Source: a virus. Taken from it: a DNA stretch of 64,000 bases. The position numbers were made by a program, and so were the translations under genes. The stretch's first letter is position 1; every line of letters begins with the position of its first letter. The notes beneath the pieces were generated by a model that was not told the DNA's origin, ran no database searches, and worked only from the letters and a program-made list of their open reading frames with translations. The DNA lies in IMG/VR virus record IMGVR_UViG_3300023296_001674. The stretch is one strand, 5' to 3'. This document shows positions 2,504 to 47,391 of this stretch, piece after piece.

Positions 2504-2556
2504 TACAAATCCTTTCAGTGGGGATAGTATAGAACCATCCCCACTGATGTCAAGGG

Positions 2557-4150: not shown

Positions 4151-4159
4151 ACAAAGGGG

Positions 4160-4208
4160 TTGACATAGCCCCTTGACTTCCCTACTATACTGGTAGGGAG
4201 GGATGAGG
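4160..4208 (+). repeat. E-element copy 1 (sigma70-like promoter + TAGGGAGGGATGAGG box), plus orientation
   Basis: TTGACA-N17-TACTAT then ctggTAGGGAGGGATGAGG; one of 12 copies of this module. Confidence 0.6.
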
Positions 4209-4325
4209 TTTATTTGGCTGCGAAAAATAACTGCACCAAAATGAAATAAAGTATTGACACCTTCTATCCAACCTGTATAATACCCACAGATTGAACGAAA
4301 CGACTTACCCCGAAGGAACGAACAA

Positions 4326-4664: not shown

Positions 4665-4727
4665 TAGGGGTTGACATTAGGAATTGGGTGGTCTATAACG
4701 CCCTGAACTTAACAAAGGAACAAACAA

Positions 4728-4952
4728 ATGTATAGCGTATATGATAGTTCGAGAGACCCGCGCATGGTAATACCCGAAGTTATGGCACGGACTGTATTCG
4801 ATAGTATTATCGGCGAGTGGAAAATTGCCAAGTTAAAGGGTGGCGAAACTGAACGACGGTTTAAAGTTAAAGAATCGGCGCAATTCGTATTCGATAAACT
4901 TGGCGGTTTTACTATTTGTTTTATTGAAGGCGACTTAATAATTAAGGGTTGA
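4728..4952 (+). CDS. hypothetical protein
   Basis: ORF track; promoter TTGACA..TATAAC ~4669-4697. Confidence 0.55.
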   Translation: MYSVYDSSRDPRMVIPEVMARTVFDSIIGEWKIAKLKGGETERRFKVKESAQFVFDKLGGFTICFIEGDLIIKG

Positions 4953-5002
4953 CTCGCCCAATCCAATAGGCTATACAATAGGTCAACCAACGGAGAGAGA
5001 TT

Positions 5003-6511
5003 ATGCAAATACCAGAAATCACACTTTCAACGCAGCAAGTTAATATTCTTGATTGGGTTAAATCAGGAAAAGGTAATGTCATTATCGAAGCTGTAGCTGG
5101 CAGTGGTAAGACCTTCACATTGGTTGAAGCCGTTAAGTTGATGGTAGGCACTGTATTCCTTGGTGCTTATAACTCTGCTATGGGTTATGAGTTGAAGGAA
5201 AAAACCAAGGGCATGAAAAATGTTCGGGCTGGCACGTTCCATAGTGCAGGCTTTGGCGCACTTCAATATCGTTACGGAAAAATGCAAGTTGATGCTAACA
5301 AAGTGCGAGATATCGTTAATGGTATGGCGGAGGGCGACGACTTGTTTGCTGTATACGGCAACTTCATTAACAAGATGGTAGCACTTGCCAAGGATTCCGG
5401 CATTGGGTTCTTTAATAAAATTAACGACCCTATCATGTGGAATGAACTTGTTGATAAGCACGACCTTATGGATCAACTCGACGAACACTTAACAGTTGAT
5501 GTTGGTATTCAGTTATCAATGGACGTCTTAAAGGCATCTAACTCTAATCTTAAAGTTATTGATTTTAGTGATATGATTTATCTTGTATTGTTAAACAACC
5601 TCCGCCTTTTCCAACAAGATTGGGTTTTGGTTGACGAAGCCCAAGATACCAATAGCACGCGACGCGCACTGGCAAAGAAAATGTTAAAACCCGGTGGGCG
5701 TTTGATCGCGGTTGGTGATCCTCGCCAAGCAATCTTTGGCTTCACTGGTGCTGATTCCGATGCGCTGGACTTGATCTCCAAGGACTTCGGTACAACGACG
5801 CTTCCTTTGACTAGCACGTTCCGTTGCCCTAAATCGGTTGTTAAACACGCCCAACAATGGGTATCACACATTGAAGCGTATGATACTAATATCGAAGGCG
5901 AAGTTATCAACGCTAAATTCGACGACGTGTTCGGTGAAAAATCCGAATATAAGTTTACCGGTTCCGATGCAATCATTTGCCGCCTTAACGCGCCTATCGT
6001 TGAACTTGCATTCAAGTTGATTCGTAAGGGTGTTCCTTGCCGCATTGAAGGTAGAGATATCGGCACACAACTTGCAGCACTTGCAAACAAGTGGAAAGTA
6101 GTCCGCCTTGACGCCTTACGCAATCGCCTTGAGAAGTATAAGGAACGTGAAGTATCTAAGGCTATGGCAAAAGGGCAAGAACAGAAAGCCGGTAGCATTA
6201 CTGACCGCGTGGGCTGCCTTAATGTTCTTATCGAACGCGCCGAAGAAAAGAAACTTGACGTTGCTGGTTTGATTGTAATGATCAAGGGCATGTTTTCAGA
6301 CGCCCAAGATAAAACCACAAATAAGAACATTTTGGTTTTATCATCCGTTCATAAATCAAAAGGTAAAGAATGGCCTAGAGTGTTCTTGTTAGGACGCCAA
6401 GAAAATATGCCAAGTCCTTTTGCTAGACAGACATGGCAACTTTTACAAGAGGATAACCTTATCTACGTTGCTGTAACGAGGGCGATGGAAACGTTAATCG
6501 AAGTGGATTAA
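5003..6511 (+). CDS. SF1 UvrD/PcrA-like DNA helicase
   Basis: AVAGSGKTFTL (Walker A), VDEAQDTN, GDPRQAIFGFTGA, TFRCP, VLSSVHKSKGKEWPRVFL. Confidence 0.8.
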   Translation: MQIPEITLSTQQVNILDWVKSGKGNVIIEAVAGSGKTFTLVEAVKLMVGTVFLGAYNSAMGYELKEKTKGMKNVRAGTFHSAGFGALQYRYGKMQVDANKVRDIVNGMAEGDDLFAVYGNFINKMVALAKDSGIGFFNKINDPIMWNELVDKHDLMDQLDEHLTVDVGIQLSMDVLKASNSNLKVIDFSDMIYLVLLNNLRLFQQDWVLVDEAQDTNSTRRALAKKMLKPGGRLIAVGDPRQAIFGFTGADSDALDLISKDFGTTTLPLTSTFRCPKSVVKHAQQWVSHIEAYDTNIEGEVINAKFDDVFGEKSEYKFTGSDAIICRLNAPIVELAFKLIRKGVPCRIEGRDIGTQLAALANKWKVVRLDALRNRLEKYKEREVSKAMAKGQEQKAGSITDRVGCLNVLIERAEEKKLDVAGLIVMIKGMFSDAQDKTTNKNILVLSSVHKSKGKEWPRVFLLGRQENMPSPFARQTWQLLQEDNLIYVAVTRAMETLIEVD

Positions 6512-6536
6512 CTATGGTTTTTTGATAAATACTTAT

Positions 6537-7271
6537 ATGGTAAAACGCAAAACAACAGAACAGTTTATACAAGAATCGACTGCAATTCATGGTGATGTAT
6601 ATGATTATTCATTGACCAATTATATCAATAGACGTACCAAAGTAAAAATAATATGCACCGTTCATGGTATATATGAACAAACTGCGGGAAATCATTTATA
6701 TCAAAAACAAGGTTGCTCAAAATGTGCCGGTGATAAACAGGCATCGAGACAGCGAAAATCACTATCACAGTTTATTCAAGAGGCAACAATAGTTCACGAT
6801 TCTTTATATGATTATTCGTTGGTGGATTACAATCATACTGATATAAAAGTAAAAATAATATGCCCAACGCATGATATATTTAAGCAAACGCCGCATGATC
6901 ATTTACATGGAAAAGGTTGCCCTAAATGCGTTCATACTATATCAAAAGGTGAAACTAACTGGCTTAATCGCATTGGTTTACCAGACGATACACAACATAG
7001 ACAAGTGCGCTTGCCTATGAATAATAATAAAAATCGAAGGGTTGATGGTTATGATCCATTAACCAATACTGTTTATGAATTTCATGGTGATTACTGGCAT
7101 GGCAACCCCGCACGTTTTAATCTCGATGATATAAACCCAACCATTAAAAAACCATACAGACAACTCTATGAAGCCACCTTAACCAAGGAAGTGCTTATCA
7201 AAGATTCCGGTTATAATCTTGTAGTTATGTGGGAGCATGATTGGAAAGCTCATCCCTCCCTAACAGTATAA
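6537..7271 (+). CDS. homing-endonuclease-like protein (tandem zinc-ribbon-like repeats + C-terminal EDxHD/Vsr-like nuclease motif)
   Basis: Two repeats KVKIICxxHGIFxQTPxxHLxGKGCxKC; C-terminus VDGYDPLTNTVYEFHGDYWHGNP; paralog of 11698..12435 and 1..239; start uncertain (track gives TTG 6522). Confidence 0.6.
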   Translation: MVKRKTTEQFIQESTAIHGDVYDYSLTNYINRRTKVKIICTVHGIYEQTAGNHLYQKQGCSKCAGDKQASRQRKSLSQFIQEATIVHDSLYDYSLVDYNHTDIKVKIICPTHDIFKQTPHDHLHGKGCPKCVHTISKGETNWLNRIGLPDDTQHRQVRLPMNNNKNRRVDGYDPLTNTVYEFHGDYWHGNPARFNLDDINPTIKKPYRQLYEATLTKEVLIKDSGYNLVVMWEHDWKAHPSLTV

Positions 7272-7404
7272 TATTAAATTACTCGTAAAAAAGCAATGAT
7301 TATTTTTATAATATGACGTAAATTACTTGTTGACATTGGTTCAGTTAGTTTGTAATATCTTTTTATCAGAACATCATACATTCACAAATGAAAGATTGAA
7401 AATA

Positions 7405-7824
7405 ATGCCAACATATCGAAAAAGAATACTCATATCAGAATTCGCTGAACCAGAAATATTTTTTGAATATAAAGGTGTGAAAATATATCATACTTATACA
7501 GACAATGCTGAAACACTTTCATCATTGAATTTTGACCGTGATTGTAAAAGCAAGCGGTTGTTTACCACGAACAAAAAATGCGGCATGGTTCCCATGTTTG
7601 ATGTTTATTTTGAAAACGATCTTCGTGTATGGGACAAACAATCAAAAAATGAAACCCGTGGGGTGTTTAACATTCAAAACATTCCAAATCCTAAAGGGCA
7701 TCATATTACGACTCATGCTGGTATTTCAAGAGTTCTTATGGAAGCAATTGACACCGGTTGGATTAAAACTAATAAAACACCAGAGTGTATTCACGATTGT
7801 CATATACTCGCACATCCAAAATAA
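7405..7824 (+). CDS. hypothetical protein (Cys/His-rich C-terminus)
   Basis: Track ORF trimmed; TTGACA-N17-TAATAT ~7330-7358. Confidence 0.5.
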   Translation: MPTYRKRILISEFAEPEIFFEYKGVKIYHTYTDNAETLSSLNFDRDCKSKRLFTTNKKCGMVPMFDVYFENDLRVWDKQSKNETRGVFNIQNIPNPKGHHITTHAGISRVLMEAIDTGWIKTNKTPECIHDCHILAHPK

Positions 7825-7913
7825 TCACATCAAGGGGAGAAGTAAAACCTTTTCCCCTTGACTAACTTTAATAAGTGTGCTATGAATATATCATAATTGA
7901 AAAGGATACGAAA

Positions 7914-8138
7914 ATGCATAACGCAGATGTTCTACATAATGCCTTACTTACCGCAACGATGATGATGCGTAAAGGTCGTGCGTTTAAGATTGTTAGATAT
8001 TCACCCAAACAAGAAACGGTTTATTATAGACCATTTTTCGCCAACGACCTGACTGACATACGCACTGACGAGTTGGATCACTTGTGCGACGATGATTCGA
8101 TTCAGTTATTCACCACAACGCAACTCGAAACACAATAA
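7914..8138 (+). CDS. hypothetical protein
   Basis: Track ORF trimmed to ATG after aaaaggatacgaaa. Confidence 0.5.
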   Translation: MHNADVLHNALLTATMMMRKGRAFKIVRYSPKQETVYYRPFFANDLTDIRTDELDHLCDDDSIQLFTTTQLETQ

Positions 8139-8147
8139 GGAAAACCG

Positions 8148-8345
8148 ATGCAAACTTATACCACCCCACGCTTAACGAACATAAGTGATACATTTCGCGC
8201 CGACGTTGCTGCGGGTGAATTAACTACATGGTGTGAAGAAAACAGTGTAGGTGCTTGGTTCATCCACGCCGTTGATCATGTGGAGTTTGAATTCCCCACA
8301 GATGCCAAACAATTTATGATGAAGTTTTGGGAGCTAGACTCCTAA
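8148..8345 (+). CDS. hypothetical protein
   Basis: ORF track; RBS aaggaaa. Confidence 0.55.
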   Translation: MQTYTTPRLTNISDTFRADVAAGELTTWCEENSVGAWFIHAVDHVEFEFPTDAKQFMMKFWELDS

Positions 8346-8426
8346 AAATCCCCCCGCATGTTCCTACGCAAGTAATGAAGACACTCCATGCGGGGGTTCT
8401 TTTTGTTTTGGCGCACCCAAAAAAAG

Positions 8427-8473
8427 CTCATCCCTCCCTATCAGCATAATAGCAGGGTCAATAGATAAGTCAA
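8427..8473 (-). repeat. E-element copy 2, minus orientation
   Basis: plus strand reads aaaaaaaGCTCATCCCTCCCTATCAG..CATAAT..N17..AGTCAA; i.e. minus-strand TTGACT-N17-ATTATG-ctgaTAGGGAGGGATGAGC-T7; ~90% identical to copy at 18201. Confidence 0.6.
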
Positions 8474-8550
8474 CCATTATTATTAAAAATAAACCATTGA
8501 CAACGGCTTTTGTATTTTATATAATATATAGATTGAAAAGGAGAATTGAA

Positions 8551-8958
8551 ATGTCGCGCACTTATCGTAAGCTTCCTTATTGGTCAAATGATCCAAAATT
8601 AACACGTGAGCGAGGCTCCAAATGGACTGGCATGCGTGTTTTTGTTGCTCCTAATGGAAATGTATTCGGTTGGGATGATGAAGCCCTACGTAAAAAATCA
8701 TCTAAACGTCGCACCAATCGCATTCGCCGTTTGATGGGCAAGAAAGAAATTGTTCTTGCCGTTGCTGCTATGGCAGAAGACGCAATGGAAGACCTCAACG
8801 AAATGATGGATTGGGAAGCCGAAGAGTATTGCGATACATATTACGACGAGTATGAATTGTCTGAATGGGCTGATTGGAAACAGCGTGAAATTGATGATCA
8901 AGCAATTGAAGAATATTATTTAAATGAAGACCCATATTATTACGATTTTGATTATTAA
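8551..8958 (+). CDS. hypothetical protein with acidic/aromatic C-terminus
   Basis: Track ORF trimmed; TTGACA-N18-TATAAT ~8494-8525; RBS aaaggag. Confidence 0.55.
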   Translation: MSRTYRKLPYWSNDPKLTRERGSKWTGMRVFVAPNGNVFGWDDEALRKKSSKRRTNRIRRLMGKKEIVLAVAAMAEDAMEDLNEMMDWEAEEYCDTYYDEYELSEWADWKQREIDDQAIEEYYLNEDPYYYDFDY

Positions 8959-9035
8959 GGGTTGACATCACTATTTGATTTCGTTATGATTCATCCAAGC
9001 TAACAACACAACATAAATCTTGAAAGGATTTAACT

Positions 9036-9293
9036 ATGGCTAATAAATTCACAATCACACGCACTTATGATCGCGATGAAATTATTGACACAGTTAATAA
9101 ATCCATTGAACAAAACGGAACATATCATCAAATCAAATCGTTGCTTGATACTTTATATACTGGATGGTTTTTTGATATAGAAACGGCTTGCGAAGTTGAA
9201 TTGATTTTACGCGAAAAGGGCGATTTTATTCGCGAGTTTTATCAAGAACGGCTAGACGAAATGAATGCTGCCAAGAAATTTGACTTGGTATAA
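9036..9293 (+). CDS. hypothetical protein
   Basis: ORF track; leader aacaacacaacataaatcttgaaaggatttaac repeated at 9308-9342. Confidence 0.55.
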   Translation: MANKFTITRTYDRDEIIDTVNKSIEQNGTYHQIKSLLDTLYTGWFFDIETACEVELILREKGDFIREFYQERLDEMNAAKKFDLV

Positions 9294-9342
9294 CTATTCA
9301 CTTAAGATAACAACACAACATAAATCTTGAAAGGATTTAACA

Positions 9343-9672
9343 ATGTCTAAAACAATTTCCCGCGTAGACTTCATTGAACTTATGGCAGATGCTGCAATGC
9401 GACTTCCAGTAACACGCAAGCGCAAGCCAGAGGATGACCCATCTGAATTCATCGACTTGTTTGATTATGATGCAATGTCAAACGAATGGTCGAAAGGTGT
9501 TCAGTGGCTTCGTGGCGTTGGTGATAGTGGCACTTATAAAGTTCCGACACCCGATGGAACATTCAAGCGCGTTCCAATGCGAACTATTGCTGAAATGCCA
9601 GCGTTCATTCAAGAGATTGTTACCGAGGCACAAACTCATTTGAATATCGATTCGATTGTCGAGATCGCTTAA
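9343..9672 (+). CDS. hypothetical protein
   Basis: ORF track; duplicated leader. Confidence 0.55.
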   Translation: MSKTISRVDFIELMADAAMRLPVTRKRKPEDDPSEFIDLFDYDAMSNEWSKGVQWLRGVGDSGTYKVPTPDGTFKRVPMRTIAEMPAFIQEIVTEAQTHLNIDSIVEIA

Positions 9673-9723
9673 CTAATCTTTAATCATTCGGTGCGATACT
9701 TCTTTATGAAAGGAGTATCGCAC

Positions 9724-9879
9724 ATGATTGATTTTTTATTATACTATTCACTTGGTGGGGTTGTTTGGTGTGTATGGACTGAAGTTCTACACCGGAAAGG
9801 ATTCTTAGCCAGACTAGGGTTGATTGTATTCATCCCTTTTGTTGCAATCACTTTAATGTTGGAATCAATACGAAATTAG
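9724..9879 (+). CDS. small membrane protein
   Basis: Track ORF trimmed to ATG after aaaggag; hydrophobic. Confidence 0.45.
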   Translation: MIDFLLYYSLGGVVWCVWTEVLHRKGFLARLGLIVFIPFVAITLMLESIRN

Positions 9880-9951
9880 TTATTGACTCTTTTATTAAAA
9901 AATGGTACACTTAGTTATACACTTATTATTAACATTTGAAAAGGAATTGTA

Positions 9952-10452
9952 ATGAGACGTTCATTAAAATTAGTATTAGCCTCGATGTTGATCGTGGCGC
10001 TATCCGGTTGTGTTACACAAGGGAGTGGCGGCGGCGTTGGCACTAAAGGTTTGCTTGGCGGTCTTCTAGGGGCTGGCGTTGGCGGATATGCCGGTTCAAA
10101 TATCGGCGGTGGTAAAGGCAAACTTGCTGCTACTGCAATCGGCGTTCTTGCTGGTGCATGGCTTGGAAATAACGTTGGAAACACGCTTGACGACGTTGAT
10201 CGGTTGAAATCGCAAAAGGTAACACAACGCGCACTTGAACGAAATCCGCAAGGTTCTCCAGCGGTTTGGTCGAACCCCACCAATCGAACCTCGGGAACCA
10301 CGACACCGACTCGAACGTATAAGTCACGAAATAATGAAGATTGTCGAACATATAAACAATCAATAGTTATCAATGATAAAATTGAAACAAAACATGGAAC
10401 TGCATGTAGAATAAATGGGCTTTGGGTAGAACAACAACCGCCCGGCTCATAA
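9952..10452 (+). CDS. outer-membrane lipoprotein with glycine-zipper domain (SlyB/17-kDa-antigen-like)
   Basis: Signal peptide + lipobox LSGC; GGLLGAGVGGYAGSNIGGG..AIGVLAGAWLGNNVG. Confidence 0.6.
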   Translation: MRRSLKLVLASMLIVALSGCVTQGSGGGVGTKGLLGGLLGAGVGGYAGSNIGGGKGKLAATAIGVLAGAWLGNNVGNTLDDVDRLKSQKVTQRALERNPQGSPAVWSNPTNRTSGTTTPTRTYKSRNNEDCRTYKQSIVINDKIETKHGTACRINGLWVEQQPPGS

Positions 10453-10577
10453 TATTAAAGATAAAACCAATCTTTTTTTCTATCATCTTTTAAATATTTA
10501 ATAGTTGACAAACTGAAATAATTTGGTATAGTTAAATCATCAACAAACACAAACAACGAAAGAAGAGGCTTAAGACG

Positions 10578-10775
10578 ATGGGTAAAACATTTTCGCGTGA
10601 TCCAGATAGTGACAATTATGCAGGTGGACATATGAAGGCAAATCGCCAAGAAACAAAATTCCGCCGACAAAAATCGGTTCGGAAAGATGCATTGCTAGAC
10701 GAAAGCATGCAACCTGATGAACCAACTTATGGCAAACACACGGATGATTTTAGCCCACGGAAAGACGGCTGGTAA
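10578..10775 (+). CDS. hypothetical basic protein
   Basis: ORF track; TTGACA-N17-TATAGT ~10505-10533; terminator 10781-10812. Confidence 0.55.
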   Translation: MGKTFSRDPDSDNYAGGHMKANRQETKFRRQKSVRKDALLDESMQPDEPTYGKHTDDFSPRKDGW

Positions 10776-10941
10776 TCAATTAAAAAGGGAAGCAGAAATG
10801 CTTCCCTTTTTTTATGCTTGACACTGGTTTAGTTAATTGCTATGTTAAATCGTCGTTGCCCAAGAAAGCGGGTTGATAAAGACTTGACTGACACTACGAA
10901 GTGTTCTATTGATTAATCATAACAACAAAAAGGAACCGAGT

Positions 10942-11301
10942 ATGACTACAGCAGAAGTAATCCCTTTCGCCGTTCTTAAAGCCAAGATCGATGACCGTGA
11001 CATTACACCAGAAGCAATTGAAGAAGCATCGTTTTCACCCGAGGTTGAAGCTGATGTTTTGACAAATTTGCTGGTATCCGGTTTATACAAAGGCATGACG
11101 AATTCTGGCATTGACACCCTTTCGGATGTAAATCAAGAATTACTTGGTGTTATATATGAAATGGTTGGCGCGGTTGTTGATCGCAAATATAAATTGTTTA
11201 ATGAATTCAATGCAATACGTGATATTCAAGCCGAAAAGGGCGATGTTCAACTTGAAACAAATGTTTTTCTAAAACCAAAACAGGAGACAACTGATGCCTA
11301 A
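10942..11301 (+). CDS. hypothetical protein
   Basis: Track ORF trimmed; promoter TTGACA..TATGTT ~10815-10843; RBS aaaaagga. Confidence 0.5.
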   Translation: MTTAEVIPFAVLKAKIDDRDITPEAIEEASFSPEVEADVLTNLLVSGLYKGMTNSGIDTLSDVNQELLGVIYEMVGAVVDRKYKLFNEFNAIRDIQAEKGDVQLETNVFLKPKQETTDA

Positions 11302-11704
11302 AGCCGTAACGCAATATGAAACATTCGACGGAAAAGTATTCTCCGACGAAAATGCCGCTGAACAATGGGAACGCAATACAAATAAAGCAAACGCAATCAT
11401 ATCGATGTTTCCGAACAACGGTCATCTTTCATCTGGCGATTTCTATCAGTTATCAAGAGATTTGATTAGCACCGCGAGAATTAAACTTGCCGATGCTTTA
11501 ACTCGTGGCGGCTTCGATGACGAAATGATTAAAGCATTTCGTGATAATACCAGCGATGTAATCGGACGCTATCTCGACGACGGCGGTTCAACATATTATA
11601 AAGCATGGTGGTTATTTTCTTGTATTGACAATCAAGGGCGGATGTTCAATCAACCGTTCTTTGCCAATAATCCAAGAGAAATAAGAGATGAAGTTTCCTA
11701 TTGA
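11294..11704 (+). CDS. hypothetical protein
   Basis: ORF track; overlaps upstream by 8 nt. Confidence 0.55.
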   Translation: MPKAVTQYETFDGKVFSDENAAEQWERNTNKANAIISMFPNNGHLSSGDFYQLSRDLISTARIKLADALTRGGFDDEMIKAFRDNTSDVIGRYLDDGGSTYYKAWWLFSCIDNQGRMFNQPFFANNPREIRDEVSY

Positions 11705-12435
11705 TTCTTCCAATCATTTTCCCATATCGTGACAAGATTATAGCCGTGAGATTTAATAAGAGTCTCACGGTTCATAGTCTTTTGATATAACTCGCCGAAT
11801 GATTTTTTATTATTGGTGTTGATATGTTCGGGATTGTGTGTATTAGGATTCCCATGCCAATAATCACCATAGAACTCATATATGGTATTTGTGTCAGGGT
11901 CATAACCGTCTGGATATATCCATTGATTATTTAATATTAAAGTTCGTCGCCTATAATCATTTGTATCAGGTAATCCAATATGATCAAGCCACGATTTTTC
12001 CATATATGATTTATTCTGTATAGTTAATGGTCGCAACATAATGGCGCACTTATTACATCCATGATTTAAATGTGCTGATGGTTCTTGTTGAAATATTCCA
12101 TGTTCAGGGCAAATGATATTCACCTTTGTATGCGTGTTATGATAATCAACTAATGAATAATTATATTTATCGCCATGTTTTATCAACGATTTTTGTATAA
12201 ATTTTAATGTAGTTCCCCGTATTTTATCTGAATTATTTTTTATTGCACATTTAATACAGCCTTTTCCACTACTAGTGTGCGAACAAGGCGTCTGTTCAAA
12301 TATTCCATGAGTTGTGCATATTATTTTAACTTTGGTATGGGCGGCAATATATATAGACAATGAATAGTCATATCTATCACCATGAATGGCGATAGCATCT
12401 TGAATGAATTTTGAGGTAGTTTTTCTTCTTGACAT
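11698..12435 (-). CDS. homing-endonuclease-like protein (paralog of 6537..7271)
   Basis: MSRRKTTSKFIQDAIAIHGDRYDYSL..KVKIICTTHGIFEQTP..GKGCIKCA, second repeat, C-terminus YEFYGDYWHGNP. Confidence 0.65.
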   Translation of the reverse strand: MSRRKTTSKFIQDAIAIHGDRYDYSLSIYIAAHTKVKIICTTHGIFEQTPCSHTSSGKGCIKCAIKNNSDKIRGTTLKFIQKSLIKHGDKYNYSLVDYHNTHTKVNIICPEHGIFQQEPSAHLNHGCNKCAIMLRPLTIQNKSYMEKSWLDHIGLPDTNDYRRRTLILNNQWIYPDGYDPDTNTIYEFYGDYWHGNPNTHNPEHINTNNKKSFGELYQKTMNRETLIKSHGYNLVTIWENDWKNQ

Positions 12436-19556: not shown

Positions 19557-19608
19557 AAAGGAGACGGGGTTCGCCCCGTTTTCTTTTAGGTATATATTCC
19601 AGAAAAAA

Positions 19609-19655
19609 CTCATCCCTCCCTACCGTAATAATACCACAATCAACCAAAGAGTCAA
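19609..19655 (-). repeat. E-element copy 4, minus orientation
   Basis: plus: aaaaaaCTCATCCCTCCCTACCGtAATAAT..N17..AGTCAA. Confidence 0.6.
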
Positions 19656-19671
19656 GCGTTAAAGACAAAAA

Positions 19672-20445: not shown

Positions 20446-20506
20446 GTAAAACAAAGGGTGGGGATATTCCCCATCCTTTTTTACATCCATTAACATCCAT
20501 AAAATG

Positions 20507-20554
20507 CTCATCCCTCCCTATCATCACAATACGACCTAACTGTATCAAAGTCAA
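20507..20554 (-). repeat. E-element copy 5, minus orientation
   Basis: plus: aaaatGCTCATCCCTCCCTATCAtCACAAT...AGTCAA. Confidence 0.55.
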
Positions 20555-20618
20555 CACTTATTTTTCACTTGACATATAATATTTTAATGGTATTATACTT
20601 ACAGAAAGGACAAAAATT

Positions 20619-24010: not shown

Positions 24011-24209
24011 TTCAGAACGCGACTGTTTGCTGGTGTTCGCTGGTGAAACTCATTATCCCCTTGGTGGTTACGAGGACTGTAAAGGTATGTTCACCAGCGA
24101 AGCGCAAGCAATGGAACACATCGCAAAAATACATTGTGAATGGTGGCAAGTGTGTCGCATGGATGAACTAATTGGTATGGTTCTTATTAATAGCGGCAAA
24201 CGAAAATAA
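24003..24209 (+). CDS. hypothetical protein
   Basis: Track ORF 23985..24209 trimmed to ATG overlapping upstream stop (ATGGCTGA). Confidence 0.45.
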   Translation: MADSERDCLLVFAGETHYPLGGYEDCKGMFTSEAQAMEHIAKIHCEWWQVCRMDELIGMVLINSGKRK

Positions 24210-24273
24210 GTGCTTGACAGTGGTTCAGTTAATTGCTATGTTAAATCATCGAAACGAACAAAGGATGACCCAG

Positions 24274-24519: not shown

Positions 24520-24629
24520 AAGTTTCATGGTAAACTAAGGGTTTTCCCCTACCCGGTGAATTGAGCGCAAGTTCTTCATCGGGATTTTTTTGTCTTGACA
24601 TTATTAAAACGTCGTGGTATAGTTAAATC

Positions 24630-24743
24630 TAAATAGGGTGAAAGTTCAGTTAGACCTAGTTCAAGTAGCCCGAACATTATAAAGATGAATAATTCTTAAA
24701 CAAACATAAAGGGAAACACCGGAATGATTCCGGTGTTTTTTTG
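24630..24743 (+). ncRNA. candidate ~114-nt plus-strand small RNA
   Basis: TTGACA-N17-TATAGT (24595-24623) then no ORF beyond 4 codons, ending at hairpin aacaccggaatgattccggtgtt+T7 (24716-24743). Confidence 0.3.
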
Positions 24744-24750
24744 TCTGGAA

Positions 24751-24820
24751 CCCATAGCATCAACAGGTTTTTTCCTATAGCATCAACAGGTTTTTTCCTA
24801 TAGCATCTATGGAATTTTCC
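24751..24820. repeat. three tandem ~23-bp direct repeats (iteron-like)
   Basis: cccatagcatcaacaggttttttc / ctatagcatcaacaggttttttc / ctatagcatctatggaattttcc; CCATAG and its complement CTATGG recur through 24850. Confidence 0.6.
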
Positions 24821-26054: not shown

Positions 26055-26069
26055 CCGATTCATACAAGG

Positions 26070-26104
26070 AAAAGAAAGTCAAGAGAAATCTTGACTTTCT
26101 TTTC
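26070..26104 (+). terminator. rho-independent terminator (repeated hairpin type containing TTGAC)
   Basis: gAAAGTCAAGAgaaaTCTTGACTTTCttttcg; same core hairpin at 27834-27872. Confidence 0.6.
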
Positions 26105-26152
26105 GATTCATTTGTTCACGTTTTGTTCTTATAAGATGATACCCAAAAAAAA

Positions 26153-26201
26153 CTCATCCCTCCCTGATACAAAATTACCACGTTTACCCCATACGAGTCA
26201 A
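26153..26201 (-). repeat. E-element copy 6, minus orientation
   Basis: plus: aaaaaaaaCTCATCCCTCCCTGATAC...GAGTCAA. Confidence 0.55.
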
Positions 26202-27333: not shown

Positions 27334-27375
27334 TACAAGTCAACCCCCTATTTTAATTCATTTAAGGGGTTGACT
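27334..27375. repeat. 11-bp perfect inverted repeat around promoter -35
   Basis: GAGTCAACCCCctattttaattcatttaaGGGGTTGACTC. Confidence 0.5.
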
Positions 27376-27431
27376 CTGTTTGGGTTGGGTAGTAATATCC
27401 CTTTATCAACTTAACAAAAGGAAACAAACAC

Positions 27432-27821: not shown

Positions 27822-27833
27822 GCACAAGGAAAA

Positions 27834-27872
27834 AGGAGAGTCAAGAGAAATCTTGACTTTTCTTTTTTTATT
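27834..27872 (+). terminator. rho-independent terminator (second copy of TTGAC-containing hairpin)
   Basis: ggAGAGTCAAGAgaaaTCTTGACTtttcttttttt. Confidence 0.6.
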
Positions 27873-27891
27873 TTTTCCGCCGCCAAAAAAA

Positions 27892-27939
27892 GGTCATCCC
27901 TCCCTACCACCATAATACACTATTCGAACAACGAGTCAA
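27892..27939 (-). repeat. E-element copy 9, minus orientation
   Basis: plus: aaaaaaaGGTCATCCCTCCCTACCACCATAATAC..N17..GAGTCAA. Confidence 0.6.
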
Positions 27940-27944
27940 GACTA

Positions 27945-28072
27945 TAAACGGGGAACCACGAATGATTCCCCGTTTTCTTTTCTATAATGGCTTGGCTTGC
28001 CGTGTCGCCAGACGATTAGATCATGATGTCAAATCCTTCCGTTAATTTTTATCCGGTGTTTGAACTTACTCT
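27945..28072 (-). ncRNA. candidate ~125-nt minus-strand small RNA
   Basis: Minus TTGACA-N16-TATTAT (plus 28080-28107) reading left into hairpin aaacggggaaccacgaatgattccccgttt (27947-27976); no ORF. Confidence 0.3.
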
Positions 28073-31672: not shown

Positions 31673-32593
31673 ATGGCAAAAGCAACCCGCACCAAAATCG
31701 ATCATGAGCAACAAATCACTAACGCTATTGTCGCCCACGTTGAAGGGTATATCGCCGCCGAGGCTACAGGCGAAGAGATCGCACGTTGGGAAAGCCCCTT
31801 CGGAAAATTCTTCCGTGAAGGCCATTTTTGCGCCGCAACCGATAACCAGTATAAAGGCTGGACTAACAATTTTTTCCTTACACTTATGGCGCACGCAAGC
31901 GGATTCAATTCCGATGCATGGGGAACATTCAAGCAATGGAAAAGCATGGGAACGGATGAAACACCCGTATCTGTTAAGCATGGTCAAAAAGGTTCCGCTT
32001 GGATTGCTTTTCCATATATCAACAAAGATAAAGTAACCGGCGACGACACCGTAACCGGATTCGGATATCGCGCCGTATTCAATGCCGATCAAATCGAAGG
32101 ATATACGCCCGAGGTTGTTGAACTACCAGAGTCGCAGGTTGTGCAACATGCCAAAGCTGAAACATTCTTGAAAAATCTGGACGTAACATTCCAGCATATC
32201 GGAAACCGCGCTTTCTATAGCCCTGCTAGTGATGCAATCAGCATGCCCCCAGAAGGCGCGTTTAAGGCGACTGAATACAGTACCGCAACCGAAGGCTACT
32301 ATGGCACCAAGTTTCATGAATACGCCCACGCAACCCTGCACGCTAGCCGGTGCAATCGCGAACAAGGCGCGGATAAAGCTTCATACGCTTTCGAAGAGTT
32401 GGTCGCCGAATTGACCTCGACTATCCTATGTTCGCGCTTTGGTATATCCGCACAACCACGCGAAGACCACGCTAAGTATATACATTCATGGTTGAAAGCA
32501 CTGAAAAGCGACAAGACCATGATTATGAAGGCAATGAAGAAAGCAAGCCAAGCAATCGCTTGGATGGATAAAAAGCAACCAACATCAAAATAA
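31673..32593 (+). CDS. ArdC-like protein (DUF1738-type ssDNA-binding N-domain + zincin HExxH metallopeptidase-like C-domain)
   Basis: ASGFNSDAWGTFKQWKSMG..KGSAWIAF ; FHEYAHATLH (HExxH); track ORF 31625 trimmed; promoter TTGACT..TATACT ~31615-31644. Confidence 0.5.
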   Translation: MAKATRTKIDHEQQITNAIVAHVEGYIAAEATGEEIARWESPFGKFFREGHFCAATDNQYKGWTNNFFLTLMAHASGFNSDAWGTFKQWKSMGTDETPVSVKHGQKGSAWIAFPYINKDKVTGDDTVTGFGYRAVFNADQIEGYTPEVVELPESQVVQHAKAETFLKNLDVTFQHIGNRAFYSPASDAISMPPEGAFKATEYSTATEGYYGTKFHEYAHATLHASRCNREQGADKASYAFEELVAELTSTILCSRFGISAQPREDHAKYIHSWLKALKSDKTMIMKAMKKASQAIAWMDKKQPTSK

Positions 32594-32654
32594 AAGGTTG
32601 ACAGTAAGGATATGATATCGTATTATATCCTTACTGAAACGAAAGGAACACACA

Positions 32655-32756
32655 ATGACACACGGTAACGGCAAGATCAGGCGATTCGCAGGCAATCTAG
32701 GGGCGCTAATGCTGGCAGCGCTGGCAGGCTACGCGACGCTGGTGGTCCTAGCATAA
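32655..32756 (+). CDS. small hydrophobic peptide (33 aa)
   Basis: Not in track; strong palindromic promoter 32589-32640; RBS gaaaggaacacaca-ATG; MTHGNGKIRRFAGNLGALMLAALAGYATLVVLA. Confidence 0.4.
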   Translation: MTHGNGKIRRFAGNLGALMLAALAGYATLVVLA

Positions 32757-32807
32757 CGCCAGAACCGAGTCAAGCACTTATTTCACGGTGTTGCACTTAT
32801 GACACAG

Positions 32808-32855
32808 TCAAGTCTTTTATTATAAAATAAAAATAAAAAAAGACTTGACATTCGA
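32808..32855. repeat. 13-bp perfect inverted repeat with AT-only loop
   Basis: GTCAAGTCTTTTTattataaaataaaaataAAAAAGACTTGAC. Confidence 0.55.
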
Positions 32856-32939
32856 AAAAAAGAGTGCTCGTGCAGTGTTTTGAAGTTTTTTATTTAATGG
32901 ATACCTTACCCTTAGCTCGAAATACGCCAAAATTTTTCA

Positions 32940-33075
32940 GGCTAAATCGGAACTCTGGCTATCGTGACACTTATCGTGACAAAATGTCGCGATACCATTA
33001 TAATGGGTCATTTATTCATCCTATCGTGACATTTGACCCATTATAATGGGTCAATACACCCCCCACCCCCTTTTC
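32940..33075. repeat. cluster of short repeats and palindromes at early-region/AT-island boundary
   Basis: TATCGTGACA x3 (one inverted as TGTCGCGATA); palindromic CCCATTATAATGGG x2 (second within 22-bp palindrome TTGACCCATTATAATGGGTCAA); then C6AC5. Confidence 0.55.
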
Positions 33076-33163
33076 TATGAAACACTTATTCATTCAATAT
33101 AAAAAAAATTCTGCGCCAAAATTTTAATAAATAATATTAGGTTTTTAACATAGGAACATTTAA

Positions 33164-33319
33164 CATGAAAACATTATCCGATAAACAACATGCTACCATT
33201 AAAGAGAACATGCGTGCTATTCCAAAAGCATCATATACAGACATTGATCGCACCGCAGTTCTTAAAGAAGAATATGCTGAATTTATAAAAAATATCAACG
33301 AAAGCGACAAACCAGAATA
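33164..33319 (+). CDS. small protein (~51 aa)
   Basis: Not in track; MKTLSDKQHATIKENMRAIPKASYTDIDRTAVLKEEYAEFIKNINESDKPE; coordinates approximate. Confidence 0.3.
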
Positions 33320-33323
33320 AACA

Positions 33324-33755
33324 ATGAGAGCATCCGACTTCATCGCTGAAACACTTATATCTGTTTCGCACGGAACCAATACCGATTTTGATCAATTAGA
33401 TGTGGCAAAAACATCCGATGGTGGAATTCACTTTGGTTCCAATCAACAAGCAGCGTTACGATCAACTGGAAAAAATTCGCGCATCATCGATACACAAATT
33501 GATGTTAGAAAACCAAAACGTTGCAAAGACGATGGATCAGGATGGAAAAACAAAATAAAATCCGCCAAACGTTCTGGATATGACAGTATTGTATATTTGA
33601 ACCGTTATGAAAATATGACCACTGAACGAGTAGAACAGTTATCACAATCCGGCAAACTAGATACTTTGGATTCATTATCCGATGCCGCATTCAAAAAATT
33701 AGTTCCTGAAGCACAAGACAGTTATATTGTGTTCGACAACGATCAAATAAAATAG
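33324..33755 (+). CDS. hypothetical protein (N-terminus MRASD.. shared with next gene)
   Basis: ORF track. Confidence 0.5.
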   Translation: MRASDFIAETLISVSHGTNTDFDQLDVAKTSDGGIHFGSNQQAALRSTGKNSRIIDTQIDVRKPKRCKDDGSGWKNKIKSAKRSGYDSIVYLNRYENMTTERVEQLSQSGKLDTLDSLSDAAFKKLVPEAQDSYIVFDNDQIK

Positions 33756-33765
33756 GACACTTATC

Positions 33766-34152
33766 ATGAGAGCATCCGAAATCACAGAAACAACAACGTC
33801 TTTAAAATGGGCAACCCGCAACCCATCACCAAAAGATTATGAAATAGTTATGATCGACATTAAAGCACTTATGGATAATACCAATCGCATACAAAAAATT
33901 TCATTATCTGCTGTAACCAAAGCAGACGATGAAAACATTATAGGTGATCGCGTTTCAAGAGCAAAACAATTTTGGCTAGATGGTGGCGAAATGCGACTAT
34001 CAATGGTTGGATACAGTGATTATTCCAAGATGGTAGACTTCACCGACGGTAGACACCGCCTAATAGCCGCGTATCAACTTGGTGAACGCCATGCACCCGT
34101 ATTGGCAGACAAGGACGGCATAGAAGAATTTAAAGCGCTGGTAGGGGCTTAA
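33766..34152 (+). CDS. ParB-like nuclease (ParB/Srx fold) domain protein
   Basis: DGRHRLIAAYQLG resembles ParB N-domain DGxHR motif. Confidence 0.45.
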   Translation: MRASEITETTTSLKWATRNPSPKDYEIVMIDIKALMDNTNRIQKISLSAVTKADDENIIGDRVSRAKQFWLDGGEMRLSMVGYSDYSKMVDFTDGRHRLIAAYQLGERHAPVLADKDGIEEFKALVGA

Positions 34153-39152: not shown

Positions 39153-39536
39153 ATGAAAAAATTATTATTAGCGGCAACACTTATGGTATTGCCATTTACT
39201 GCGATGGCAGAAGAACAAACAGTTGGAATGTCTGCTACATTTATGTGTAGAGTGGCATCAACAGTAGACGCGCATTTAACTAGATTGGGTTATACCAAAG
39301 GTGTTGAACTTGATGGATTAAATATGGGAACCATTATTATATGGTACGGAACAGAAAACGGCATCAAATCTTGGATGCTTACTGCGAATACACCCAATGG
39401 TTTAACTTGCAAATTAGATAATGGTTATGTTGATCTCAAAAACCCAACCGAAACTACTCCTGAATCGTCAAAACCAAAACTGGATGAAGAATCATTAAAG
39501 AAAATGATGGACAACGCGAAAAAAGACTCACTTTAA
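39153..39536 (+). CDS. secreted protein
   Basis: Signal peptide MKKLLLAATLMVLPFTAMA. Confidence 0.55.
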   Translation: MKKLLLAATLMVLPFTAMAEEQTVGMSATFMCRVASTVDAHLTRLGYTKGVELDGLNMGTIIIWYGTENGIKSWMLTANTPNGLTCKLDNGYVDLKNPTETTPESSKPKLDEESLKKMMDNAKKDSL

Positions 39537-40207
39537 CATTTGATTATATAAATATAATTTGGAAAATTGACCGACTTCAATCTCCTTCTTACAGTTTCTT
39601 CGCCGAGTTTTAATATTTTTGCCGACTCGATGACTGATGAATATATAACGTCGTCTATTTTAACAGATTTTTTGCGATGATTATTTTCTGGATGTTTTCC
39701 ATATAACGGATGTTTATCACCGATTTTTCCATACATGCCATTTTTTTCACCAGAATTTTTTTCACTTATTTTTTGTTTAGTTTCATCTGTTCTTGGCACA
39801 CCGAATAATGGATTATTTTTTCCAGTTCTGCCCCACATTGGATTATTTTTTCCTTTCATTTTCTCTGCAAATTTAGGTCTTTTAACACCTGTTCTGTTGG
39901 GTGGTCTTCTATCAACGCAAATATTAGTAAGTATGCCATTTTTGTCATAACCATTTCGACCAAGTTTTTTAATCCACGTTTTTTCTAAATCATATGCATC
40001 CTTTTCTGGCATATTTTTTTCTATGAATTTAACACCAGGTTCTAATCCTTCTTTTCGTATCGCATTTATTTTATTCCATTTTTGTATATTTTCTGTTGTG
40101 TGTATAGTTTCCGTCAGATGTCTCTTCCATCGGTCTTTTGATCCTTTTCCTATATAAAATTCTATATTATCATGTCTTGGGTCTAGCAATGCGTATACGT
40201 AATACAT
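39533..40207 (-). CDS. GIY-YIG homing endonuclease with NUMOD3-type repeats
   Basis: MYYVYALLDPR..FYIGKGSKDRWKRH; repeated GKNNPMWG/KNNPLFG/KHPLYG motifs. Confidence 0.75.
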   Translation of the reverse strand: MYYVYALLDPRHDNIEFYIGKGSKDRWKRHLTETIHTTENIQKWNKINAIRKEGLEPGVKFIEKNMPEKDAYDLEKTWIKKLGRNGYDKNGILTNICVDRRPPNRTGVKRPKFAEKMKGKNNPMWGRTGKNNPLFGVPRTDETKQKISEKNSGEKNGMYGKIGDKHPLYGKHPENNHRKKSVKIDDVIYSSVIESAKILKLGEETVRRRLKSVNFPNYIYIIKC

Positions 40208-44858: not shown

Positions 44859-45330
44859 AATGAATGATATACAATTGAGTGGAAATTTTAAATTATCAGA
44901 GTTGGTTAAGTCAGATACGGCGGAAAGGTTAGATATTGATAACTGGCCCACAGACAATGATACTATTGAAGCGTTAAGGGTGACAGCAAACAGAATATTG
45001 CAGCCCGTCAGAATGAATTACGGTATTTCTTTTTCGCCTACTAGCGGGTTTCGTTGCTTAACCTTGAATAGAGCATTAAAATCGAAAGATACATCTGATC
45101 ATGTTTTAGGTAGAGCAGTAGATTTTGAAGTACCAGGAATACCAAATAAAGATTTGGCTGTGTGGATACGAGATAACCTATCTTTTGATCAGGTTATATT
45201 AGAATTTTGGGATGGGATAAATCCAAACTCTGGGTGGGTGCATTGTTCTTTTAGATCAGAAACTGAAAATAGAAATCAGTGTTTAACTATTAATAAAAAT
45301 GGCGTATTTAATGGATTTAGAGCAAATTAA
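44851..45330 (+). CDS. peptidase M15-like zinc peptidase (candidate cell-wall hydrolase/endolysin)
   Basis: SDHVLGRAVDFEV (S-x-H-x2-G-x-A-x-D) typical of M15 family. Confidence 0.5.
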   Translation: MNKMNDIQLSGNFKLSELVKSDTAERLDIDNWPTDNDTIEALRVTANRILQPVRMNYGISFSPTSGFRCLTLNRALKSKDTSDHVLGRAVDFEVPGIPNKDLAVWIRDNLSFDQVILEFWDGINPNSGWVHCSFRSETENRNQCLTINKNGVFNGFRAN

Positions 45331-46024
45331 ACAAGAAATTTATTATTTATATGAAATTGAAAATATTATCAATGGAAAGAAATATATCGGATATACTAAT
45401 AATCCAAGACTTCGCCAAAAAGCACATTTTGTTTGGAAAAATAGTGGGTCTATATTGGTTGAACATGCTATTAAAAAATATGGATTAGATTCATTGCGGT
45501 TTAAAATACTTGTTAAATCAGACAATGAAGTATATATTAAAGATTTAGAAATTGCAGCCATTAGCTCTCTTAATACCAAAGCACCACAAGGGTATAATTT
45601 AACTGATGGCGGCGAAGGAACTCGTGGTTTGACATTATCTGATAATCAAAAAGCAGATAGAAGTAAAAACATGAAAGGTAAAATGATTGGTGAGAAAAAT
45701 CCCTTTTATGGAAAGAAACATGATCCAGAAACTCTAAAAAGAATGGTAGAAACTAGAAGAAAAAATGGATCATATGTTGCGTGGAATAAAGGCGGCGGAC
45801 ATAAATTAAGTGCTAAAAGTCGCAAAAGTCTCCGTGAAAACAGACCTGTTGGCGGGACAAAAAATCCAAACGCCAAGTTGACGGAAGAAAAAGTACGAGA
45901 AATATATAATCTAAAAGGACAAATGACTGGTGAAAAGGTCGTCATGTTCTTAGGTTTGAATGTATCTGGTGAGACCGTTAGACGTATATGGAATAGAACT
46001 ACATGGTCGAGTTTAGTATATTAA
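45299..46024 (+). CDS. GIY-YIG homing endonuclease with NUMOD-like motifs
   Basis: IYYLYEIENIINGKKYIGYTNNPRLRQKAHF; GEKNPFYGKKH. Confidence 0.7.
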   Translation: MAYLMDLEQIKQEIYYLYEIENIINGKKYIGYTNNPRLRQKAHFVWKNSGSILVEHAIKKYGLDSLRFKILVKSDNEVYIKDLEIAAISSLNTKAPQGYNLTDGGEGTRGLTLSDNQKADRSKNMKGKMIGEKNPFYGKKHDPETLKRMVETRRKNGSYVAWNKGGGHKLSAKSRKSLRENRPVGGTKNPNAKLTEEKVREIYNLKGQMTGEKVVMFLGLNVSGETVRRIWNRTTWSSLVY

Positions 46025-46551: not shown

Positions 46552-47391
46552 ATGAAATCACCATTACGATATCCGGGTGGCAAAACGCGTGCAACCAAAA
46601 CATTATACTCGTTAATACAATACCATATACAACAAAATAATATAACTGATATATGTTCGCCATTTTTGGGTGGAGGATCATTTGAATTATTTTTATGTAC
46701 AACTGGCATTAATGTTACCGGATATGACATTTTTGATCCGTTGGTAGATTTTTGGCAGTGCATGTTAACTGATCCAGATAAATTAGTTGCGGTTATAGAA
46801 ACTTATAAAAAATCATATGACAGTGGAATACCAACAGCAAAAGAACAATTTTATATATTACAAAAAACACAACACGAATATTCCGACGTATGGCACAGGG
46901 CGGCAATATTTTTCACATTGAATAGATCGTCTTTTTCTGGATCGACGATGTCTGGTGGATGGTCGCCCGATTATCCACGTTTTAATGATTCTTCTATCGA
47001 AAGAGTTAAATCATTTAACGAACCATTGCTGCAAGTTAATAAATTATCGTTTGATCAATCTATAACAAAACATAAAAACAGTTTTCTATATCTCGATCCG
47101 CCATACATGATTGAACACAATCTTTATGGAAAAAAAGGAAACACCCATAAAGATTTTGATCATTTAGGATTATATGACATATTAACAACTAGAGATAATT
47201 GGATTATGTCATACAACGATGATGCTGATATTCGAAATTTATATCAGAATTATAAAATAGAAACGGTAAATTGGGCATATGGCATGACTTCTAATCGCAA
47301 ATCAAATGAAATCGTTATATTCAGTGATGATATAATATCCGACCCTTACTCTATAGATGCTATATCAAAAGGCGCGAATATAATTTGGTAG
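46552..47391 (+). CDS. dam: DNA N6-adenine methyltransferase (Dam-like, alpha group)
   Basis: RYPGGKTR; FLGGGSFEL (motif I); LDPPY (motif IV); TTGACA-N17-TATAAT ~46491-46519. Confidence 0.75.
   Translation: MKSPLRYPGGKTRATKTLYSLIQYHIQQNNITDICSPFLGGGSFELFLCTTGINVTGYDIFDPLVDFWQCMLTDPDKLVAVIETYKKSYDSGIPTAKEQFYILQKTQHEYSDVWHRAAIFFTLNRSSFSGSTMSGGWSPDYPRFNDSSIERVKSFNEPLLQVNKLSFDQSITKHKNSFLYLDPPYMIEHNLYGKKGNTHKDFDHLGLYDILTTRDNWIMSYNDDADIRNLYQNYKIETVNWAYGMTSNRKSNEIVIFSDDIISDPYSIDAISKGANIIW

Follow-up and report, generated by a model that had tools for sequence, protein, structure and literature searches.

In phage lambda, the OR and OL regions carry multiple copies of an operator over a promoter. 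Rut sites, where Rho loads, are expected to be C-rich, G-poor and weakly structured, and a perfect C6AC5 run is not one of their defining features. To our knowledge, nothing is known about how half-megabase phages organize their temporal programme or where their replication starts. In T4, the origins oriF and oriG consist of a promoter and an A/T-rich unwinding element, and oriE combines direct repeats spaced by 12 nt with an early promoter (PMC3016281). The late promoters of the same phage follow the consensus (A/T)ATAAATA at −13 to −6 (PMC1524935). Moreover, T4-type phages carry promoter/stem-loop cassettes, termed PeSLs, at indel and mosaic breakpoints of their hyperplastic early region (PMC4122927).

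The locus considered here is a dense cluster of repeats and palindromes in a 408-bp non-coding gap of a 64-kb window, by which the whole analysed stretch of viral DNA is meant. The cluster may be the core of a single-copy, cis-acting control region of about 350 bp, which would close an early block of host-takeover and anti-defence genes and separate it from the first late-type transcription unit.

The setting of the cluster in the phage genome

Proteins encoded in the window are found on contigs of up to 570,750 bp and its PHROG and Pfam content is phage-like and, thus, the source is considered a very large phage. To the left of the gap, an ArdC-like gene (ArdcN and MPTase-PolyVal domains) is followed by a plus-strand ORF for a hydrophobic peptide of 33 aa (32655–32756), the final gene of the early block, whose counterpart in the relative L023 encodes 40 aa (10991–11113). 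To the right, a plus-strand operon (33165–34152) comprises a 51-aa ORF, an ART-PolyVal protein (33324–33755) and a 128-aa protein with a DGRHRL motif (33766–34152). A preliminary description, made from the sequence, regarded the region as non-coding and placed it at a compositional junction, and both points are confirmed. No ORF of the region is conserved in the relative, a small conserved ORF having been considered and rejected since the two phages agree in neither its frame nor its length, and GC content falls from 44–50% to 30–39% across the cluster within the 64-kb window. The "AT island" of that description is the beginning of the lower-GC, later-expressed part of the phage genome. Megablast and blastn searches with the region returned no match in phage and plasmid collections. 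An independent Logan assembly is 100% identical to the window over 14.4 kb and, therefore, the cluster is not an assembly artefact.

The distribution of promoters gives this junction a further meaning. When every CTTGAC is listed, about 30 near-consensus sigma70 promoters (CTTGACW-N17-TAtaAT), all of them rightward, fill positions 1–33000, often with an inverted repeat running through the spacer and start site. The last member of this family (TTGACA-17-TATTAT, 32598–32636, plus strand, 11 of 12 consensus positions) drives the 33-aa ORF and is spanned by such an inverted repeat over its spacer, −10 box and start site. A second motif, TAATAAATA, came to light when the element was compared with the remainder of the window by local similarity; it matches the T4 late-promoter consensus (A/T)ATAAATA (PMC1524935). 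On the plus strand it has seven copies, none of them before 33125 and every one 33–43 nt 5' of an ATG (33165, 37596, 40289, 44670, 46070, 48625 and 51022), and the first of them, TAATAAATAATATTAG (33125–33140, plus strand), stands 40 nt before the ATG at 33165. Since the early promoters fill 1–33000 and the TAATAAATA sites start at 33125, the cluster falls precisely into the interval that separates the last early unit from the first late-type promoter. This boundary between promoter classes had been overlooked in the preliminary description. An antisense promoter facing the 33-aa ORF, as in type I toxin–antitoxin systems, was also considered and rejected, its −10 box being poor and not conserved in L023.

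Anatomy of the element and its counterpart in a relative

The repeats of the cluster are genuine and statistically exceptional. Among about 2550 sliding 276-bp windows, positions 32800–33075 rank first, with 118 nt under repeated 10-mers (mean 10, sd 15), a value that none of 2000 first-order Markov simulations reaches (simulated maximum, 67). The preliminary description had listed four components here, i.e., an inverted repeat, a set of short repeats, a pair of palindromes and a C-tract, and all four were found in place by reading 32500–33400 and by a repeat finder, with the corrections of detail given below.

Parts of promoter modules that lie elsewhere in the window recur in the left third of the element. 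Here, two plus-strand 16-mers (32774–32808) contain GCACTTAT, a motif kept in L023; on the minus strand these 16-mers read AAATAAGTGCTTGACT, a fragment of a minus-strand promoter module that occurs elsewhere in the 64-kb window. The inverted repeat follows (32807–32849), formed by two back-to-back, −35-like AAAAGACTTGAC arms flanking a pure A/T run of 27 nt (32815–32841), which is the joint second longest in the window; as RNA it would form a hairpin of −16.1 kcal/mol. It had been described as a perfect 13-bp repeat with a 19-nt loop; 19 nt do separate the arms, but the perfect part, GTCAAGTCTTTT (32807–32818) with AAAAGACTTGAC (32838–32849), measures 12 bp, the 13th base being A rather than T. 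If one mismatch is allowed, the arms extend to 17 nt and the loop shrinks to 9 nt. The arms reproduce the −35 region found in the early promoters of this phage, and a usable −10 box is absent from both; rightward and leftward sigma70 promoters starting from them were rejected, as there is no −10 at 16–18 bp in either phage. Copies of AAAAGACTTGAC also occur at 10879 and 23661 and GTCAAGCACTTATTT occurs at 24204–24218, while a comparable GTCAA...A/T...TTGAC pair is located at 27344–27378. The block TGCTCGTGYAGTGT, unique in the window and conserved, comes next on the plus strand, followed by a T-rich tract (32865–32895).

The core of the element is bracketed by a 12-bp direct repeat, CGCCAAAATTTT, with its left member at 32925–32936 (plus strand). 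Four TATCGTGACA sites occupy 32960–33031, spaced by 12, 13 and 37 bp. Instead of the two direct copies and one inverted copy first reported, three are perfect direct copies (32960, 32972 and 33022) and one is inverted with one mismatch (32985–32994), so that copy 2 and the inverted copy make up a 23-bp near-palindrome (32972–32994). A further exact copy at 11725 lies inside a minus-strand ORF and is taken as chance. The 16-mer CCATTATAATGGGTCA is present twice, at 32995 and 33038, 43 bp from start to start (32995–33054). Its second copy sits, as first described, within the perfect 22-bp palindrome TTGACCCATTATAATGGGTCAA (33033–33054), but in the first copy, with ACC in place of CCC, the palindrome is limited to 12 bp. 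With only two copies in the 64 kb, the palindrome is not regarded as a general phage promoter. The C6AC5 tract, at 33059–33070 as described, is followed by TTTTCTATGAAACA and by a C-rich, G-poor tail, which contains the right CGCCAAAATTTT copy (33114–33125), the whole plus-strand segment extending over 33055–33125. A MotA-box middle promoter at TGCTCGT was rejected, as no TAnnnT stands at the right distance. The palindromes, the C-tract and TGCTCGTGYAGTGT are each unique within the 64-kb window. In IMG/VR, a scan for the 22-bp palindrome gave no match and a scan for the C-tract gave 44 matches, none of them related. A scan of JGI metagenomes for two CCATTANANTGG sites 25–35 bp apart, a loose pattern, found at least 119 loci, and among the matches listed none is homologous beyond the pattern and the source phage does not appear.

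The sole informative relative is L023, an ENA phage contig reached through protein searches, whose ArdC protein is 72% identical to that of the window. A second contig, L024, is identical to it across the element and, since it is the same phage, adds no variation. The L023 counterpart of the gap, again between the small ORF and the gene that follows, has a homologous architecture, and GC content drops at the homologous point from 0.50 to 0.36. The coincidence of the island boundary with the repeats, which the preliminary description proposed to check in related phages, is thus seen in the one informative relative. The shared parts comprise GCACTTAT; GTCAAG, about 30 A/T positions and CTTGAC; TGCTCGTGYAGTGT; two ACCATTAYARTGG palindromes exactly 43 bp apart, over a spacer unrelated to that of the window; CCCCCACCCCCTTTTC.TAT.AAACA and CGCC..AATTTT; and C5-6AC5TTTTC, with a perfectly conserved C-tract. 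At the place of TATCGTGACA, L023 carries TCTGGTCAT twice plus an imperfect inverted copy, so that the short repeats are identical within each phage and different between the two. Both the exact 43-bp spacing over an unrelated spacer and the perfect identity of the repeats within a phage indicate selection. As judged by sequence comparison, the architecture of the element is conserved in its only known relative. More distant relatives found through a 195-aa neighbour (L194–L200) do not have the element, the contexts of P0003, P0004, P0005 and P0020 either do not extend downstream or are not syntenic, and no ArdC relative in IMG/VR exceeds 40% identity. Since neither the distant relatives nor the DNA-pattern scans yielded the element, the evolutionary evidence amounts to two independent sequences and, consequently, conservation and covariation weigh little.

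Gene synteny with L023 breaks at the right edge of the element, homology ending within the tail at 33055–33125. The genes that follow in L023 are different (receiver-domain and Sigma70_r4 proteins, the latter 1.6 kb downstream of the element), and synteny resumes at a fusion of the ART and ParB-like proteins. These genomes are mosaic at many intergenic sites and not solely at this one. The break is compatible with a junction scarred by recombination and devoid of dedicated function, in which repeated module exchange would have left decayed promoter/stem-loop modules and gene-start fragments. The PeSLs of T4-type phages, which are known to mediate such shuffling, are likewise near-consensus sigma70 early promoters with stem-loops, repeated through the early region and located at mosaic breakpoints (PMC4122927). 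The left third of the element is assembled from fragments of this kind, both −35-like arms lack a −10, and in L074 a piece of the palindrome, CATTATAATGGAATACTT, adjoins a different gene. However, the −35-like arms without −10 boxes also set the element apart from PeSLs, and the palindrome pair, the C-tract and the short repeats are single-copy features rather than promoter cassettes. The uniqueness in the window of the central and right parts, together with the signs of selection noted above, makes a mere scar unlikely. A site-specific recombination locus, another of the functions first proposed, found no counterpart in the form of an integrase or resolvase among the scanned ORFs.

Proposed termination and promoter gating, and the question of an origin

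Two features of the element bear on a possible end of early transcription here. Firstly, the segment 32757–32960 folds as RNA at −54.4 kcal/mol (z = −4.75). In the predicted structure, a stem of GCACU/RCAC with GUGY/AGUGU, in which the TGCTCGTGYAGTGT block pairs upstream, encloses the A/T hairpin, and the resulting composite stem-loop (−26 kcal/mol) precedes a U-rich run (UUUUGAAGUUUUUUAUUU). Compared with L023, the composite stem holds one compensatory change, from G–C to A–U, in a comparison of two sequences; L023 forms a different hairpin, with other partners, and it also precedes a U-rich run. No canonical intrinsic terminator was called by the scan at the element, while the phage has canonical ones elsewhere. 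Secondly, the tail of the element is strongly biased in composition, with 24 C and 7 G over the 111 nt of 33055–33165 and 25 C and 7 G over 91 nt in L023, which places it third in C-over-G among the 100-nt windows of the 64 kb and second in L023. Judged by base composition, this resembles a rut site, with about 100 nt of C-rich, G-poor and weakly structured sequence downstream of a gene block, and it surpasses the approximately 80 nt expected of a Rho-dependent terminator.

The same fold might instead belong to a structured RNA, which would be either a 3' UTR or stabilizer of the final early mRNA, or else a small RNA transcribed from the promoter P1 described below. In the small RNA, the 22-nt palindrome would fold into a hairpin and the C-tract would provide a single-stranded seed resembling an anti-Shine–Dalgarno sequence. 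The folding z-score, the single compensatory pair and the perfectly conserved C-tract agree with this proposal, as does a T-to-G change in the second palindrome of L023, which is tolerated as a G–U pair on the plus strand only. Nevertheless, Rfam returned, even at a permissive threshold, only chance microRNA-like hairpin matches (E of 0.5 or worse), the P1 transcript region folds with a z-score of only −1.81, no terminator would define a discrete small RNA, and the hairpins of L023 use different partners in a pair of sequences too small for covariation. A dedicated RNA is, thus, considered improbable.

The near-consensus sigma70 promoter P1 (GTGACA-17-TATAAT, 32976–33004, plus strand, 11 of 12 consensus positions) is made from the repeats themselves. 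Its −35 box lies inside copy 2 of TATCGTGACA and its −10 box is the centre of the first palindrome, while the −35 and spacer are covered by the 23-bp near-palindrome. Two more TATCGTGACA copies flank it, one 12 bp upstream and the other at about +12 to +21. The surroundings of P1 are a classic operator-over-promoter geometry. They parallel lambda OR/OL in that a short site, present several times and once as a palindromic pair, overlaps the −35, the spacer and the early transcribed region of a strong promoter, and in that the sequence of the site is phage-specific. They differ from it in that no repressor gene was found, there is no sign of lysogeny and the geometry is not conserved in L023. 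This relative has no sigma70 promoter at its palindromes and no equivalent of P1, its rightward early promoter following just after the element and, therefore, the overlap of a promoter with repeated and palindromic sites is limited to the phage of the window.

The reading that we favour, although tentatively and with less than even confidence, is that of a composite transcription boundary and control region, i.e., a termination zone plus a protein-gated rightward promoter. Rightward early transcription would stop at the element, at the stem-loop and U-tract, through Rho acting on the C-rich tract, or both. The short repeats and the two phased palindromes would serve as candidate binding sites for sequence-specific dimeric proteins. 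Since the repeats differ between phages yet are identical within each, they would be bound by a phage-specific protein, and the palindromes by a conserved one. The bound proteins may gate the rightward promoter and, hence, control early access to the genes for the ART and nuclease-like effectors, which would otherwise be expressed from the late-type promoter. Several observations sit less well with this reading. A search for a candidate repressor detected no HTH or RHH DNA-binding protein nearby in the window, transcripts from P1 would themselves traverse the C-rich tract, and such repeats would suit an origin equally well.

A replication origin is, in fact, the main rival, possible but rather doubtful. 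The unwinding element would be either the A/T run that the inverted repeat flanks or the A/T-rich stretch that follows P1, the phage-specific repeats would be iterons for an initiator, and P1 would supply a primer or an R-loop transcript, as at T4 oriF/oriG or oriE. The pure A/T runs of 27 nt (from 32815) and 22 nt (from 33118) fall within the 10–12 least stable 30-bp windows in the 64 kb, and the 30-bp window at 32813 is surpassed in instability by no more than 63 of 63,971 positions, so that A/T-rich DNA suited to unwinding adjoins the repeats. The identity of the repeats within a phage and their divergence between phages would agree with iterons, and the element is single-copy within the 64 kb and conserved in architecture. 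In both phages it lies at a GC-content boundary, 1.5–3 kb from a change of sign in GC skew, and T4 origins, which combine promoter, unwinding element and iterons, are also found near such shifts of composition or transcription (PMC3016281). The phage of the window has early and late promoters of types similar to those of T4. The order of a promoter followed by A/T-rich DNA and the 12-bp spacing of a short direct repeat are further likenesses to oriF/oriG and oriE.

However, the promoter of the element is of the sigma70 rather than the MotA type, and its position is not conserved in the relative. The repeats are only three or four, short and irregularly spaced (12, 13 and 37 bp), and neither a RepEB-like gene nor any other replication gene is found within about 26 kb in Pfam and PHROG scans of the flanking and large ORFs, the nearest being a UvrD-type helicase (5003–6511). 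DnaA boxes, IHF sites and GATC clusters are absent, as are IHF and DnaA sites in L023, and the more distant relatives lack the element. As for the skew, it turns positive 1.5–3 kb to the right of the element in both phages, at non-homologous positions over minus-strand genes, and its minima likewise coincide with minus-strand gene blocks. Gene orientation would explain the change.

A site for pausing DNA entry, similar to the injection stop signal (iss) of T5, or a genome-end or packaging site that ends the first-entering early block, was likewise weighed. [quoted passage not shown] In contrast with the iss, it lacks the defining paired DnaA boxes, which in T5 sit inside inverted repeats within a terminal repeat, measures about 0.4 kb instead of 1.2–1.7 kb, and comes with no evidence of two-step entry, of terminal repeats or of contig ends here, nor with a terminase gene nearby. 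The parallel is purely one of analogy, and an entry, end or packaging site is very improbable. Taken more broadly, the element could be a once-per-genome cis site of a phage of more than 0.5 Mb, which is possible and only a little less doubtful than an origin considered by itself: either an origin composed of promoter, iterons and unwinding element, maybe served by the adjacent injected nuclease-like protein, or an entry checkpoint resembling the T5 iss after the 33-kb host-takeover block.

The putative downstream effectors and the meaning of the element

The preliminary description had also suggested a partition site of the ParB type, because a ParB-like gene lies nearby. The 128-aa protein, encoded 691 bp from the element, carries a DGRHRL...LG motif (DGRHRLIAAYQLG) that by itself suggests a ParB/Srx fold, and palindromes are present, as a parS site bound by this neighbour would require. 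That assignment hangs on the one motif, since the protein has no Pfam match at E ≤ 10, no PDB profile match, and no HTH or dimerization region, and its AF2 model (pLDDT 40.6) is unusable for a fold search. No parS palindrome of the TGTTNCACGTGAAACA type is found at the element and no ParA among the scanned ORFs, while in L023 the counterpart of the protein is fused to the ART domain. ParB domains in the company of ArdC, MPTase and ART are considered NTP-regulated DNases unrelated to partition (PMC5512222). The partition reading is, thus, already largely refuted and its probability is close to negligible.

The ART and 128-aa proteins share the N-terminus MRAS(D/E)..I.E, which resembles the T4 capsid-targeting sequence, cleaved after L/I-x-E (PMC9026906). 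This N-terminus, together with the late-type promoter ahead of the genes, points to virion-packaged, injected effectors comparable to T4 Alt.

The element provides a precisely delimited, conserved and experimentally portable candidate of 350 bp at the seam where some 30 host-type early promoters give way to the first T4-late-like promoter. Acting as a terminator/operator switch, it would explain how virion-delivered anti-defence effectors, such as the ART and nuclease-like proteins, are kept out of the early programme or admitted to it. Should it turn out to be an origin or an entry checkpoint instead, no site of that kind would have been defined before in this group of phages.

Promoter classes on either side of the element

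The window has seven plus-strand copies of the motif TAATAAATA (33125, 37556, 40251, 44631, 46032, 48582 and 50989), each with an ATG 33-43 nt downstream (7/7), and the plus strand to the left of 33125 contains none. Since TAATAAATA matches the T4 late-promoter consensus, it is probably the late (or at least non-early) promoter of the source phage. The first half of the window (1-33000) carries approximately 30 near-identical plus-strand early promoters of the form CTTGACW-ctggttcagttagtt-GCTATAAc, e.g., at 14092, 21793, 29313, 29836, 31032 and 32598, and promoters of the same type are distributed over 942-11468 in the related phage contig L023. Many of these early promoters contain an inverted repeat that spans the spacer, the -10 and the start site, a feature kept in L023, and their organisation is similar to that of the T4 PeSL cassettes.

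Small transcription units of the early region

The early block ends with a conserved small hydrophobic ORF (33 aa at 32655-32756; 40 aa at 10991-11113 in L023), which has a strong promoter to itself, the spacer of which contains a hairpin. This ORF was also considered as a possible type I toxin, but no antisense promoter conserved between the window and L023 was found.

A mini-cassette recurs in the order promoter, TAGGGAGGGATGA (a strong Shine-Dalgarno plus ATG), short ORF beginning M(T/S/R)FFW or similar, and terminator. Copies are located at ~19600-19660, ~20500-20560, ~26150-26200 and ~27890-27945 on the minus strand and at 4172 on the plus strand, as well as at 4634 and ~5555-5600 in L023, the majority being antisense to the main gene direction. 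These mini-cassettes explain the other strongly C-skewed intervals. The palindromes AAAGAAAGTCAAGA-gaaa-TCTTGACTTTCTTT at ~26069-26105 and ~27831-27866 look like bidirectional terminators, and the pair GTCAACCCCC-A/T-GGGGTTGAC at 27344-27378 has the appearance of back-to-back divergent promoters and is the intact counterpart of the element's A/T hairpin (32807-32849).

The region second in repeat density within the window (24594-24819) harbours a candidate small RNA, in which an early promoter at 24594 is followed, after ~115 nt, by the canonical terminator AAACACCGGAAT-G-ATTCCGGTGTTTTTTT (24714-24745) and then by three tandem 23-bp repeats, CCYATAGCATCAACAGGTTTTTT.

Repeats and homing-endonuclease-type genes beyond the element

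Intergenic pairs of the palindrome CCATTATA(A/G)TGG, 40-55 bp apart, are present in unrelated metagenomic contigs among the JGI matches listed (L103, L110, L112, L147 and L158), which were selected by the palindrome-pair search pattern itself; one of these pairs adjoins a tRNA-like sequence. A further exact copy of TATCGTGACAA at 11725-11735, inside a 245-aa minus-strand ORF with no assigned function, was judged to be a chance occurrence. Several genes of homing-endonuclease type (GIY-YIG/NUMOD3, HNH) and a D12-class adenine methyltransferase gene are found at 1853-2503 (-), 6522-7271 (+), 39533-40207 (-), 45299-46024 (+) and 46552-47391 (+), and the element contains no GATC sites.

Putative injected effectors and the adjacent palindrome

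The late-region ART-PolyVal protein (ART), DGRHR-motif protein and 593-aa protein share an N-terminus, MRAS(D/E)F..(I/L)xE, encoded at gene starts 33324 and 33766 in the window, 1434 in the fragmentary relative L074, and 14653 and 15747 in L023, where the ART and DGRHR domains, two separate genes in the window, are fused. This N-terminus resembles the T4 capsid-targeting sequence with its gp21 cleavage site (PMC9026906), and the proteins that carry it here are probably head-packaged, injected anti-defence effectors. In L074, an 18-nt stretch (1413-1430) directly after a scaffold gap and immediately 5' of the DGRHR-protein gene is identical at 17/18 positions to the first L023 palindrome and its flank (CATTATAATGGAATACTT), a match that hints that the palindrome travels with effector genes or recombines beside them.
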